Shown here: positions 20,556 to 25,358 of the stretch, piece after piece | Layout of the letters: each line of letters starts with the position of its first letter | How positions within the stretch are numbered: the first letter of the stretch is position 1 | Assembly: GCA_964393845.1 (NCBI GenBank) | Contig: CAYMUX010000003.1 | Location: forward strand, 48-64,047 | Direction of reading: 5' to 3' | Length of the DNA stretch: 64,000 nucleotides | From: an uncultured Nitrospiraceae bacterium | Lineage (GTDB): Bacteria; Nitrospirota; Thermodesulfovibrionia; UBA6902 | Notes under the pieces: generated by a model | The model's database searches: none | The model's input: the letters and a program-made list of their open reading frames with translations, nothing else | What the model was told of the DNA's origin: nothing | Made by a program: the position numbers and the translations under genes

Positions 20556-20657
20556 TAGAATTGATGGTCCTTTTGTTTATCAAATATTATGTGGGTGATG
20601 TCAAGTCCACATTTTACATATTCACCTGAAGAATGCAGACATGACACCACCCACTTA

Positions 20658-20915
20658 TTAGAGCTTCTTATAAATTTCCTTGCGGTGACCGACTCTCAAT
20701 ATAACGATATCTTTGCCTTCAATATCAAAAACAACCCGGTAATCTCCTGTACGGAACCGGTAGGTACCGATTTCAGGATTTGTCAGTTTTTCAGAGAGCT
20801 CTAAAGGATTGTCCTGCAATTTCAGAAGGGCTTTGCTTATCTGGTGGCTTATGGAAGGATCAAGTTTCCTGATATCTTTTTCCGCCCTGCGGGTATAGAC
20901 GAGTTTGTAACTCAT
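20658..20915 (-). CDS. Type II toxin of the RelE/ParE family.
   Basis: 85 aa; RelE-like C-terminus ...DYRVVFDIEGKDIVILRVGHRKEIY; 4-nt overlap with the upstream small antitoxin gene. Confidence 0.7.
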   Translation of the reverse strand: MSYKLVYTRRAEKDIRKLDPSISHQISKALLKLQDNPLELSEKLTNPEIGTYRFRTGDYRVVFDIEGKDIVILRVGHRKEIYKKL

Positions 20916-21118
20916 TCTCCGAAAATCTCTTTATGTGATTTTGTTCTGCCTGCTTTGTACTCGGACCGTGCCTCCTTGACGCTTTTGAGATAATCAGGAG
21001 AAGTCATAGCAAGCAAGTCTTCAATAAAAGATTCTCTTTCATGTTTCTTCATCTTTTTAACGGCTTCAATAATATCATCAGATGATATGGGAACTTTGAC
21101 TTCTATCATTTTTTGCAC
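20912..21118 (-). CDS. Antitoxin partner of the RelE/ParE toxin.
   Basis: 68-aa acidic protein immediately upstream with an overlapping stop/start. Confidence 0.55.
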   Translation of the reverse strand: MQKMIEVKVPISSDDIIEAVKKMKKHERESFIEDLLAMTSPDYLKSVKEARSEYKAGRTKSHKEIFGE

Positions 21119-21348
21119 CTCCTCATGATTTGTATTTTAACATTCTACCCCTGCCTTTCCACAATCTCAATCTGCGAATCCCTGATGCGGAGTATTTTAT
21201 CAGTAACAGTTGAGGAAATTCTATTGACTCTGCAGATCATCGTAGTTTGTAAGCCCGTAAGAGCGTAAGTGCGCAAGGTCATAATATCCGTTTATTGCTG
21301 TTTTACTTTTCCGCACACGCCAAAATGAAAGACGTGACCCTCAGGACC

Positions 21349-21630
21349 TTATTCAGTTTCATTGATAAACTTCAATATTCTATTAGCAACGGCCTTAGCC
21401 AATAACGGAGGAATGGCATTGCCAATTTGATTATATTGCGAAAGATGGTTTTCTGCTTCCTTCCCCTGTTGTATCAATAGTTTTGAGGAAACTTGAGTTC
21501 GCTTTCCTTTGAATACATAACTATCGGGAAAGGATTGCAACCGTGCTGCCTCACGAGAGGTAATATTTCGTGGCTGATTCGGATGAACAAAGTTTGAGTA
21601 AAACGATGCAGGAATAGTACAAGAAACCAT
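21349..21630 (-). pseudogene. C-terminal remnant of a DNA (cytosine-5) methyltransferase.
   Basis: Contains only motifs IX-X: [15 protein letters not shown] and [19 protein letters not shown]. An in-frame stop lies 8 codons upstream of the Met, and there is no room for motifs I-VIII before the next gene. Confidence 0.7.
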
Positions 21631-21762
21631 CTTAGGTTTTAAATGCCGTAATTAGAATTGTATTCCTTATCCAATATTTCACCATTCCCGTTCCGTTTTC
21701 TTACTCGTAATTCTTCTGGTATTTCTTCCAACGACAAACCATTTAATATTTGCTCTGTCCCA

Positions 21763-21945
21763 TCAGGGTTTGATATAGGCATTCAGTCCGATGGTGACAG
21801 GTTTGTCGTTTACTTTAGCTGTGGTAACAGCATTTCCCCTCGTGCTTGCAACGACAAGGGTTTTGCCGGATGCCGACGGAGTCGGGGTTTCCAGGTCAAT
21901 TTCGATGTAAAGCTTGTTGTCCTTGATTTCAACTTTCATTGCCAT
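21763..21945 (-). CDS. Small (60 aa) hypothetical protein.
   Basis: MAMKVEIKDNKLYIEIDLETP...; no recognisable motif. Confidence 0.35.
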   Translation of the reverse strand: MAMKVEIKDNKLYIEIDLETPTPSASGKTLVVASTRGNAVTTAKVNDKPVTIGLNAYIKP

Positions 21946-22428
21946 GTGTAATTCTCCTTTTTTTGATTGGTTAGAACTCCCTTTTTAAAAAAACAGTTCC
22001 AGCGATTCCAACGGTTCAAGCGGCTTGAACAAAATATTATCGAGGTTGAACATCGATAATTATTTAAGTTTCCCCTTAAAAATCCAACGCCTAATATTAA
22101 TCAATATCACACTAAACAGCAAGAAGCAAACAGTTCCACAGAGCCACAGTGCAACACCACCTATTAAATGCCCTACATGGTGCGCATCCGTGATGTAACA
22201 GTAAAATAATTCTAATTATTACTGCTGTAGAATTTTGAACTACGCATTTATTTACAAAAAACAAAGAATGGATACTTGAAAAAGAAATATCTGATAAACT
22301 TACAGAAGGGGTAATGAACGTCCTATAGATACTTAGGCATTTAAAGATCCGGGAGTTGAATAGAAAAAACATTGTAAAATCTCCAGGATGAAGACCTACT
22401 ATTAAAAACAATAAAGTAAGGAGTATAT

Positions 22429-23391: not shown

Positions 23392-23465
23392 GGGACGTTG
23401 TTTAAAGTCCGTAAGACATATGTGTATCAAGGTCGCGTCTTGAATCTTGCTTAATTTACTATCCT

Positions 23466-23819
23466 TCAATACTCCGTATATTTCCGCGAATCCCCTTTAA
23501 CAGTGTCTGAAGGATACTTTATTTTATTCATATCAACCTTCTTATGCGCCGCATCAATCAGATCAATCCCCAATTTATCAGCAATCCTGACAAGATAAAT
23601 AAGTATATCCGCAAGTTCCTGTTCCACCTCTTTGAGCTTATCACCGGGCAAGTTACTGCTCTGCTCCTGTGTCAGCCACTGGAAATGCTCAATCAGCTCA
23701 GCAGCCTCAGCGATTAAGGCCATAGACAAATTCTTGGGCGAATGAAACTGGTCCCAGTCCCGTTCCCCCGCAAACTCCCTCAGCCGTCCCTTTAATACAT
23801 CCAAAGAATCCTGTTCCAT
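23466..23819 (-). CDS. MazG-like nucleotide pyrophosphohydrolase (small all-alpha NTP-PPase).
   Basis: 117 aa; EAAELIEHFQW ... ELADILIYLVRIADKLGIDL is a typical MazG motif. Confidence 0.7.
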   Translation of the reverse strand: MEQDSLDVLKGRLREFAGERDWDQFHSPKNLSMALIAEAAELIEHFQWLTQEQSSNLPGDKLKEVEQELADILIYLVRIADKLGIDLIDAAHKKVDMNKIKYPSDTVKGDSRKYTEY

Positions 23820-23982
23820 AATTCAAATAATTGTTCCAAATGTTTCAGCCGTTCCAGCAGTTCCAACCGTTAACGGATGAAACGGTTCAAGCGGCTCAAG
23901 CGGATGAAATTTTTACTTAAAGATTAAAGATGCAACATTTTAACGGAAATCAATACATTCAGCAAGGAGAAAAATGGCATTG

Positions 23983-24492
23983 TCAATTACCGTAAAGGCT
24001 TAAAACAATATCAGCCAGTATCGCCAGTATCGAAAGCATGAAGATGATTAAGTAGTTGATGTCCTCCGGTGATTTCTGGATGGATGAAAGGAGGTAGGTT
24101 ACAACTTCCCTGTCCTCATCGGAAAAACATGCGTTGTTTTTAATTTTTGATATGAGATCATACTGTCTTATCGCCTGTTTCCTTTTTCGTGAGATGTAAT
24201 ACCGGTAGAGGAAGAAGACAAGATATCCCAGGGCTCCCGCGTACCAGACAGGCCTGACCCACGCGGGTTCAATATGCTGAAAGATTATAATTATACGGAA
24301 GGCTACGGCGGAGAAAAGGCCCAAAACAAAGAACCCGTAAATAACCGGCTTTGGTAATGTATGGGGATGCCTGTTGCCTTTCATTGTCCTCTCCGTAGAT
24401 AGCTCATGAATATAATACAATTTATAGAGAGGAAGTGCGACCGTATAAAGGCGCGTACACTCGAAAGGCAAGAGACAGCCCTCAGCAATCAA
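23983..24492 (-). CDS. Hypothetical membrane protein.
   Basis: 169 aa; four predicted TM segments. Confidence 0.4.
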   Translation of the reverse strand: MIAEGCLLPFECTRLYTVALPLYKLYYIHELSTERTMKGNRHPHTLPKPVIYGFFVLGLFSAVAFRIIIIFQHIEPAWVRPVWYAGALGYLVFFLYRYYISRKRKQAIRQYDLISKIKNNACFSDEDREVVTYLLSSIQKSPEDINYLIIFMLSILAILADIVLSLYGN

Positions 24493-24598
24493 CAGGCACG
24501 AGGATCACGCAGGGTCGCACCTGCGCTCTATACGGGCAACTCTCACGAAACAATATAAGGTATAGACACGGCCCAGGAGATCGGCTTGTGCTATAATC

Positions 24599-25165
24599 GT
24601 GAAAGCGGGGGACGAACCACGAGGACCCGGCTTGATGTGTTGTAAGAAATACATTTCAGAAGTTCTTCTTTTTATCTTTCTCTCCCTCTGCATCACCTCT
24701 CCAGCATATGTTAAAGATTACAAGGTTGTCAGAGGCACAGTAACAAAAGTCATCGACGGAGACACCGTTATTATCAGGCCTGTCAGCGGAAAACTGATTA
24801 AGTGCAGGCTATACGGTATTGATGCGCCTGAGATACCTCACAATGGTAATCCCGGGCAGCCTTACGGTCGTGCCGCTGACAGAGAATTGAAGAACCTTGT
24901 TTTACACAACACTGTTGAGATCACTCTCACCGGTGAATCATCATATGACCGTGAGATCTGCATCATTAAAAAAATGGGCGTGGACATCAACCTTGAAATG
25001 GTGAGACGCGGTTATGCCCGGTCTTACCGAAAGTATCTCAAAGGAGCGTATGCATCTGAATATATTGACGCTGAAAACGAGGCACAGAAGATACATCGCG
25101 GACTGTGGCAGCAGTCGAATCCTCAGCCACCCTGGGAGTTCAGGAAGATTAAGAGAAAGAATTAA
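24599..25165 (+). CDS. Thermonuclease (staphylococcal nuclease, SNase)-like secreted nuclease.
   Basis: Signal peptide; SNase motifs GDTVIIRP, RLYGIDAPE, YGRAADRELKNLV. Confidence 0.7.
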   Translation: MKAGDEPRGPGLMCCKKYISEVLLFIFLSLCITSPAYVKDYKVVRGTVTKVIDGDTVIIRPVSGKLIKCRLYGIDAPEIPHNGNPGQPYGRAADRELKNLVLHNTVEITLTGESSYDREICIIKKMGVDINLEMVRRGYARSYRKYLKGAYASEYIDAENEAQKIHRGLWQQSNPQPPWEFRKIKRKN

Positions 25166-25358
25166 CTGCGGATAAAAAATGAGCGGCAGGATTCGCAATG
25201 ATACGTTCGTGAGATAAGCGTTTCCGATTGTTATGAGATTACCAAAAACTGAACGGATTTAAGATGGATTTCATATCACAGTCTCAATCAGGCCCTGCGA
25301 TTATCGTGCAGTCAAAAAAACATATTCCTAATCCTCTATAATTTATGTATATTAGATT

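Follow-up and report, generated by a model that had tools for sequence, protein, structure and literature searches.

Current models of Rho-dependent termination begin with the capture of RNA by the N-terminal OB-fold of the Rho factor. This primary RNA-binding site, together with a helix bundle, makes up the N-terminal domain (NTD) of canonical Rho. Shortened forms of Rho have been described as well. According to a published survey (PMC11347177), Type 4/Group B Rho and the short form covered by the model NF041509 (paralog_Rho2) are shortened paralogues that usually stand beside a full-length Rho; Type 4 is defined there by the absence of Rho_N alone, with the Rho RNA-binding domain retained. 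The same survey reports single-domain 'Rho-like' sequences from 421 species, treated in the supplement alone, and five phyla that contain species without a functional Rho, neither Nitrospirota nor Pseudomonadota being among them. Here we describe a rho gene for a protein of 320 amino acids (aa) that has only the C-terminal domain (CTD) of Rho. The gene lies in a 64,000-nt stretch of DNA, hereafter the window, from an uncultured Nitrospiraceae bacterium of the Thermodesulfovibrionia (GenBank assembly GCA_964393845.1, contig CAYMUX010000003.1, positions 48-64,047). An initial annotation had taken the segment at 20.6-25.2 kb of the window, including this gene, for a single degraded islet of mobile-element debris. 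The data obtained point instead to a chromosomal backbone whose gaps have been refilled with other genes, and to a complete CTD-only Rho gene that belongs to a distinct, ancient lineage; we consider these two statements, taken jointly, to be quite probable.

The gene and the region conserved in front of it, together termed the rho module (promoter, leader and open reading frame (ORF), about 1.15 kb), are as follows:

22246-22428, plus strand: conserved rho upstream region, defined by alignments of short-rho loci
22429-23391, plus strand: CTD-only Rho, 320 aa, with an arginine-rich disordered tail at about residues 1-30, followed by a part that corresponds to residues ~130-419 of E. coli Rho

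The protein, below referred to as short Rho, was recognized by the Rho model NF006886 over positions 128-412/413 with 363 bits (cut-off 315). The score was 346 bits with TIGR00767 (cut-off 509) and 299 bits with NF041509 (cut-off 628), the latter over positions 76-358 of 360. Short Rho resembles Type 4/Group B Rho and NF041509 in being a shortened Rho form, but its match to NF041509 starts some 75 positions deeper in the profile and stays well under the cut-off. Neither Rho_N nor Rho_RNA_bind gave a Pfam match in short Rho, and the alignment with the Rho models begins at position 128-130. Furthermore, a hidden Markov model (HMM) of the NTD, built from the N-termini of 24 full-length Rho proteins, found nothing in the window, nor in any of more than 40 short-rho loci from other genomes (designated below as L001, L004, etc.). 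A split Rho with a separate NTD gene nearby was rejected on the same grounds. The initial annotation had spoken of a truncated Rho without NTD; the lack of the NTD holds, while the word 'truncated' is misleading, since the gene is intact and its family conserved.

A search of 5.8 billion proteins revealed more than 110 homologues that are 73-95% identical to short Rho (a range that rests on the best 120 homologues among the matches listed), nearly all of them about 320 aa long. Those bearing an organism name come mostly from metagenome-assembled genomes (MAGs) of Nitrospirota or Thermodesulfovibrionia; CTD-only homologues are also present in a Paraglaciecola MAG and an Omnitrophota MAG. When short Rho was compared with 1.84 billion representatives, the best full-length Rho proteins were 48-53% identical to it with flat scores of ~270-290 bits, and the only closer matches were other short forms, e.g., a 301-aa Sericytochromatia protein. 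Because the family is conserved at ~320 aa and stands at about 50% from all canonical Rho proteins, we conclude that it separated from them long ago and did not arise by a recent deletion. As judged from the conservation of its sequences, the family is under strong purifying selection, which does not agree with the proposal that this Rho is mobile-element debris. A phage origin was rejected as well, given that short Rho has no PHROG match and no relative in a scan of viral contigs. According to PMC11347177, short Rho would fall into the single-domain 'Rho-like' class of that survey; such sequences have been counted but not analysed in the literature that could be searched, so that the family appears to be uncharacterised so far.

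Short Rho shares the RecA-type motor domain with canonical Rho of the E. coli type (PDB 1PV4, 3ICE, 8Q3N), with 47-52% identity. In the AlphaFold2 model (mean pLDDT 85), residues 1-23 are disordered, and the best Foldseek matches of this model are Rho C-terminal domains (TM 0.84). The equivalents of K184, T185, E211, R212, D265 and R366 (E. coli Rho numbering) are invariant in 112 members of the family; these residues cover the lysine and threonine of the P-loop GKT, the catalytic glutamate, the arginine valve, the Walker B aspartate and the arginine finger. The Q-loop is conservatively substituted (K283 to R, T286 to S). Unlike in canonical Rho, however, the P-loop K181 is always replaced by G, and the R-loop K326 is not conserved, the 112 members having A (72), R (18), N (16) or C (3) in its place. 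The R-loop lysine is important for the RNA-coupled ATPase of E. coli Rho.

Short Rho also differs from canonical Rho in lacking the whole NTD, with both the helix bundle and the OB-fold. The NTD is replaced by a disordered tail of about 30 residues, which is basic and rich in Ser, Arg, Gln and Asn, and in which the number of repeats differs among members, reaching four in P0078. The tail unit comprises about 13 residues, is SNSRRGKSRPQQR-like and occurs in one to four copies, as seen in the N-termini of P0078, P0044 and the L018 protein. Rho proteins of Mycobacterium tuberculosis and Bacteroides likewise bear an N-terminal segment that is basic, disordered and of low complexity and for which contacts with RNA are plausible, but there the disorder is added to an intact NTD, whereas in short Rho it takes the place of the NTD. 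Short Rho is predicted to be an ATP-driven RNA translocase of hexameric form, which would lack a pyrimidine-specific primary site for loading and would instead capture RNA non-specifically with its arginine-rich tail.

The short rho ORF has its own ATG and AAGGAG ribosome-binding site, and the 480 nt upstream of it are non-coding. Within the conserved upstream region, an extended -10-like motif, TG-n-TAAACT at 22292-22300, is kept among the short-rho loci; it precedes a leader, about 120 nt long, in which a CUCC element resembles an anti-Shine-Dalgarno (anti-SD) sequence; the AAGGAG that follows is invariant. The upstream AUCCGGGAG could compete with a possible CUCC-AAGGAG pairing in this leader. 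A structured leader RNA was nevertheless rejected as a candidate: Rfam found nothing there, covariation was essentially absent, and the candidate anti-anti-SD/anti-SD helix pairs in 84% of cells, with shuffled sequences doing equally well.

The locus that proved decisive for the islet question, L096, was reached through its homologue of the RluA gene, which lies to the left of rho in the window. L096 keeps the genes for RluA, the rho module, the staphylococcal nuclease-like protein (SNase) and the fn3 protein in the order and orientation of the window, and all three gaps between these backbone genes differ. The arrangement, with DNA identities given for the window vs. L096, is the following:

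19718-20591: RluA, 94% DNA identity
20.6-22.2 kb, slot X (between RluA and rho): toxin-antitoxin (TA) pair, Dcm relic and 60-aa orphan ORF in the window; DJ-1, zinc-finger protein and NUDIX in L096; SAM methyltransferase in L001; in L004, a gap of 7.7 kb occupied by a TA-like pair, a fragment from the N-terminal part of Dcm, REase-like ORFs and Vsr
22246-23412: rho module, 93% DNA identity
23.4-24.5 kb, slot Y (between rho and SNase): MazG and membrane protein in the window; dCache-GGDEF in L096
24549-25167: SNase with its upstream region, 82% DNA identity
slot Z (between SNase and fn3): PP2C and kinase in the window; threonine synthase in L096
fn3 gene: 67% DNA identity

L001 and L004 also share RluA and rho with the window, and the contents of the gap differ there too. 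Since the gaps of L096 hold other genes, the TA pair with the methylase relic and the MazG gene with the membrane protein gene are to be regarded as variable cassettes; and since the order of the backbone genes in L096 is kept with only the gaps replaced, the region is a backbone with replaceable slots and not one block. Comparison with this relative thus contradicts the idea of a single degraded islet at 20.6-25.2 kb. The accessory, defence-flavoured character ascribed to its content is borne out for slots X and Y, but not for rho and SNase, which belong to the backbone. The scan for defence systems suggested together with the islet idea, made here with PADLOC, gave no complete system: the methylase models matched the Dcm relic, Rho matched mad8 weakly (E = 6e-5), and SNase matched one candidate model, SNc+LTD. 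In this Thermodesulfovibrionia genome, the backbone would therefore carry RluA, the CTD-only Rho, a secreted SNase and an fn3 protein controlled by a c-di-GMP riboswitch, and its intergenic gaps would have been repeatedly refilled with small accessory cassettes.

Elsewhere, short rho is found in varied surroundings. In most of about 40 short-rho loci, DNA homology with the window extends only from ~22200-22400 to ~23360-23420, i.e., over the promoter-like motif, the ~120-nt leader and the rho ORF; additional homology is limited to RluA in L001, L004 and L096 and to csp, PP2C or mgsA in other loci. Downstream of rho, a conserved array consisting of a SAICAR-synthase-like gene, purB, nusB, ribH and ribBA is present in only five of 40 loci (L001, L004, L014, L019 and L020), and in L072 an ABC-transporter insert separates this array from rho. 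When 150 genes next to rho in 43 loci were compared with Pfam, 180 families matched, none in more than five genes, the commonest being SAICAR_synt (5), ABC_tran (4), NYN (4) and the IS200-like transposase (3); no defence signature was found among these 150 neighbours. A multi-gene Rho system was therefore rejected, as no partner recurs among the neighbours and the PADLOC matches are to generic ATPases. In pairs among L001, L004, L014 and L072, the identity at four-fold degenerate sites is 0.67-0.74 for rho vs. 0.46-0.62 for purB, ribH and ribBA of the same genome pairs, with the amino acid identity of rho being no higher. This raised identity could reflect either recombinational exchange or a constraint on synonymous sites. 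The GC content at third codon positions (GC3) of rho tracks that of its flanks, i.e., of the host.

Several further observations were made on the surroundings of rho. In five of about 41 loci (L007, L002, L022, L036 and L068), short rho has a cold-shock (OB-fold) gene at a distance of up to about 10 kb, which is too weak an association for a split Rho to be claimed. In L007 (8020-9357), a trio of csp, a 118-aa ORF and an mgsA-like gene stands immediately upstream of rho, and the corresponding trio of the window (52151-53355) is 29 kb away. L025 bears a second, fragmentary rho copy (12008-12242) about 1 kb downstream of the intact one, and the MAG to which L025 belongs, BS150m-G55, also carries a diverged short rho on contig L018.

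Every element that the initial annotation had named in the segment was found in its place by ORF listing and family scans. The features of the slots and flanks are listed below:

17937-18025, minus strand: tRNA-Leu(UAA), 1.7 kb left of RluA
19716-20555, minus strand: RluA-family pseudouridine synthase (PF00849, 104 bits), left anchor of the backbone
20658-20915, minus strand: RelE/ParE-superfamily toxin, full length (PF05016, ParE_toxin, 58.5 bits vs. cut-off 23)
20912-21118, minus strand: candidate antitoxin, 68 aa, assigned from the gene arrangement, with a 4-nt overlap with the toxin start
21349-21740, minus strand: pseudogene of the C5 cytosine methyltransferase Dcm (PF00145 and tblastn)
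21763-21945, minus strand: orphan ORF, 60 aa, with a strong GGAG ribosome-binding site
21995-22035, no strand assigned: degenerate 9-nt repeat array containing the 16-mer AACGGTTCAAGCGGCT, at the left end of the homology with L009
23466-23819, minus strand: MazG-like (DCTPP1-like) nucleotide pyrophosphohydrolase (PF12643, 46.5 bits vs. cut-off 27)
23836-23910, no strand assigned: second degenerate 9-nt repeat array, with an exact copy of the 16-mer at 23881-23896
23983-24384, minus strand: small membrane protein, 133 aa (start MKGNRHP; ORF with the start according to the gene call on L071)
24599-25165, plus strand: SNase-fold nuclease (PF00565, 76 bits), likely start ATG 24635, backbone gene
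3' of the SNase gene: PP2C, then a Ser/Thr kinase (slot Z)
27487-29865, minus strand: fn3/Ig-like surface protein, 792 aa, backbone gene
29935-30011, minus strand: c-di-GMP-I-GGC riboswitch (64.8 bits vs. gathering score 59)

The RluA gene is 93-94% identical at the DNA level in L001, L004 and L096. The GC content of its stretch (19500-20600) is 0.50-0.53 vs. ~0.43 for the window, close homologues number only about 17 (71-93% identity), and the named ones below 71% identity are mostly gammaproteobacterial (Sedimenticola, Shewanella, Thiotrichaceae). These features suggest that the anchor gene, compositionally foreign as it is, was itself acquired horizontally. Two ORFs of 178 and 150 aa between tRNA-Leu and RluA have no family match and no counterpart in the related loci, and neither an integrase nor a transposase is among those ORFs of the interval from 14.7 to 32 kb that were included in the Pfam scan. 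At the other end of the region, the c-di-GMP-I-GGC riboswitch is situated about 70 nt upstream of the fn3 gene. Two segments of this gene, 28917-29052 and 29205-29340, both match one and the same segment of L096; this double match reflects a unit of about 96 aa that is duplicated within the gene, as is also visible in the protein sequence.

In slot X, the toxin covers positions 2-89/89 of the PF05016 profile and matches the PHROG RelE-like toxin with E = 7e-21; its score with TIGR02385 (26 bits) is slightly under the cut-off of 27.9. The candidate antitoxin gave no family match in Pfam, NCBIfam, PADLOC or PHROGs, and neither it nor the toxin has a homologue in the related loci. A sigma-70-like site with 10 of 12 matches (21170-21142) lies immediately upstream of the antitoxin candidate. 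The TA pair proposed previously is thus confirmed as an intact RelE/ParE toxin with a candidate antitoxin ORF upstream. Like other type II RelE/ParE modules, it combines a small upstream ORF overlapping a full-length toxin of this fold with a promoter-like site of its own; unlike them, it has a putative antitoxin that fits no described family. The operon is probably functional, and the predicted pair would act as an addiction or stress module. The 60-aa orphan ORF likewise has no match in Pfam, NCBIfam, PADLOC or PHROGs and no homologue in the related loci.

The methylase relic in the same slot is a true remnant. The ORF fragment 21349-21630 (minus strand) matches positions 270-324/324 of PF00145, and when joined with a 47-aa ORF (21639-21782) it aligns as one piece to the 392-aa Dcm of Clostridium butyricum. 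With tblastn, residues 266-296 of this protein were matched at 21740-21651 and residues 298-392 at 21648-21364 in another frame, whereas residues 1-265 gave no match. The two frames and the lack of a match for residues 1-265 show that the gene is 5'-deleted and frameshifted (near 21649), with only the 3'-terminal ~127 of ~392 codons left. As only residues 266-392 were matched, the catalytic motifs I-VIII (AdoMet binding, the PCQ cysteine, ENV) are missing. This agrees with the earlier description of a fragment with motifs IX-X only, except that the remnant is slightly longer than described. In comparison with Dcm-Vsr type II loci, the C5-methylase C-terminal motifs are shared, and the matching slot of L004 is occupied by a Dcm fragment, REase-like ORFs and Vsr, but the window itself holds a frameshifted last third of the methylase without endonuclease or Vsr. 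The relic would be a residue of a lost type II restriction-modification system.

The exact 16-mer occurs at 22010 and 23881, thus bracketing rho and MazG, within arrays whose unit is GTTCAAGCG-like; the first array contains the hairpin GTTCAAGC-G-GCTTGAAC. Similar 9-nt arrays are located upstream of rho in L011 (9558-9666 and 9872-9917), one of them inside the otherwise conserved leader. The arrays may represent a small palindromic repeat element. The direct repeats were rejected as insertion scars, being part of degenerate arrays that are also found upstream of rho in L011. The adjacent stretch 22036-22250, in front of the rho promoter region, has a counterpart only in L009 (2827-3040), with about 90% identity, and contains the near-perfect palindrome ATTATCGAGGTTGAACATCGATAAT. 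An 8-nt indel breaks a 57-aa ORF (22025-22198), so that the stretch is probably non-coding.

In slot Y, the MazG-like assignment made earlier is supported by the PF12643 score, which passes the gathering threshold, and the acidic motifs EAAELIE and ELADIL are visible by inspection. The protein resembles MazG-like/DCTPP1-type all-alpha NTP pyrophosphatases in its PF12643 match and in that its close homologues are partly annotated as dCTP diphosphatase; what sets it apart is the varied context of the homologues, which includes defence islands, TA neighbours and rho neighbours. The closest relatives (76-88% identity) reside in defence islands or beside a MazE/PIN pair. Some close homologues adjoin SNF2, DUF4391 and N6_N4-methylase genes, and others lie within a cluster of a helicase, a McrB-like ATPase, a DUF2357/PDDEXK protein, a methylase and Mrr. 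The predicted enzyme would sanitise or deplete (modified) dNTPs. MazG is missing from the rho-SNase slot of L096, and in L072 and L073 it is on the opposite side of rho relative to the window, beside the MazE/PIN pair. A nucleotide pyrophosphohydrolase adjoins short rho in three arrangements: MazG in the window (23466-23819), MazG in L072/L073 (L072 10001-10393) and NUDIX in L096 (7425-7688). This adjacency may be a coincidence or a functional link. The 133-aa membrane protein gene of the slot, present in the segment but previously unnamed, has no family match in Pfam, NCBIfam, PADLOC or PHROGs. A single module of MazG, membrane protein and SNase was rejected, as 17 metagenome homologues of the membrane protein never adjoin MazG or SNase. 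The sole exception is L071, which probably comes from the same population as the window because its proteins are 99-100% identical.

The SNase was previously described as a secreted nuclease. Its family is confirmed, and the equivalents of D21, R35, D40, E43 and R87 are kept in an alignment with staphylococcal nuclease (PDB 1SYB); the secretion is suggested by inspection of the hydrophobic N-terminus, MCCKKYISEVLLFIFLSLCITSPA, which looks like a signal peptide. In L096, the gene has the same order and orientation, with 74% amino acid and 82% DNA identity including about 50 nt upstream, and this identifies it as a backbone gene and not as islet cargo.

The reading favoured here, a backbone with refilled slots and a complete gene for short Rho, has to be weighed against several others. 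That the whole of 20.6-25.2 kb is one degraded defence or mobile-element islet, with Rho, MazG and SNase as decaying cargo, would fit the TA pair and the methylase relic, the MazG relatives in defence islands, the exact 16-nt direct repeats (22010, 23881) around rho and MazG, and the RluA neighbour that looks horizontally acquired. L096, however, keeps rho and SNase while the gaps alone change, and Rho is intact and strongly conserved; no integrase or transposase was seen in the Pfam scan of 14.7-32 kb, PADLOC gave no system beyond the methylase models on the Dcm relic, and the viral contig scan gave no viral matches. The islet is thus largely refuted, and we regard it as very improbable. Still less credible is a pseudogene of canonical rho that has lost its 5' end: although short Rho has about 130 N-terminal residues fewer than E. 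coli Rho, the gene begins with a start codon and ribosome-binding site of its own behind a conserved upstream region, more than 100 homologues are of the same length, the catalytic residues are invariant, and the NTD HMM detects no coding remnant upstream in any frame. This possibility is refuted by the conservation of the family. A more serious competitor is that the rho module is a cassette exchanged horizontally between genomes and sites. It would account for the loci, the majority, where the module alone is DNA-homologous to the window, for the neighbour array shared by only five of 40 loci and the lack of any Pfam family in more than five of 150 neighbours, for the higher four-fold-site identity of rho than of purB, ribH and ribBA, and also for the IS200-like transposases adjoining rho in three loci, for MazG lying to one side of rho in the window and to the other in L072, and for the duplicated rho fragment in L025. 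On the other hand, a synonymous rate lower by a factor of two would not be unexpected for well-expressed genes, GC3 follows the host, and synteny is kept in L001, L004, L014, L019, L020, L072 and L096; moreover, the membrane protein gene is also found without synteny in distant relatives, which implies that the loss of context is general, and neither a recombinase nor att-like ends were found. We therefore treat the exchange of the module as a tentative possibility, doubtful on balance.

As to the role of the protein, short Rho might be the only Rho of these Thermodesulfovibrionia, performing genome-wide termination with its basic tail in place of a primary RNA-binding site. Its housekeeping-level conservation, invariant ribosome-binding site and conserved leader are as expected for a core regulator, several genomes place the gene among core genes (purB, nusB, ribH, ribBA), GC3 tracks the host, and NF006886 is passed (363 vs. 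315 bits). Yet short Rho stands at the same distance (about 50%) from every canonical Rho and is hence no recent derivative of the Rho of this lineage, the Paraglaciecola MAG has a CTD-only homologue presumably besides a normal Rho, and one MAG has two diverged copies (L018 and L025). In addition, Nitrospirota are not among the five phyla with species lacking functional Rho in PMC11347177. We consider the sole-Rho role unlikely. Because of this omission of Nitrospirota from the Rho-less phyla and the equidistance of the family from canonical Rho, we favour a second, specialised Rho beside a canonical one, which seems fairly likely. Some points weigh against the overall picture of a backbone with a functional short Rho. 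The full backbone is documented in one relative only, L096, and rho is in unrelated contexts in most other loci; the presence of a canonical Rho alongside short Rho in these genomes is a presumption; since the R-loop K326 is replaced by A, R, N or C, RNA coupling may differ or be weak; and family membership alone underlies the roles predicted for the TA pair, for MazG and for the membrane protein.

The accessory cassettes of this region, i.e., the TA pair, the methylase relic and the MazG-like enzyme, are routine; they are of value only in showing, on a fine scale, how conserved genes alternate with replaceable slots. The short-Rho family is widespread in subsurface Nitrospirota and has relatives in other phyla. 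Being conserved, apparently expressed and, by its residues, catalytically intact, it would provide a natural test of the Rho motor without the NTD. Short Rho may act as a specialised RNA translocase beside the canonical one, may modulate canonical Rho, or may be a terminator in minimal form. If it were indeed the sole Rho of these bacteria, the NTD, considered essential for rut recognition, would be dispensable for a working Rho.

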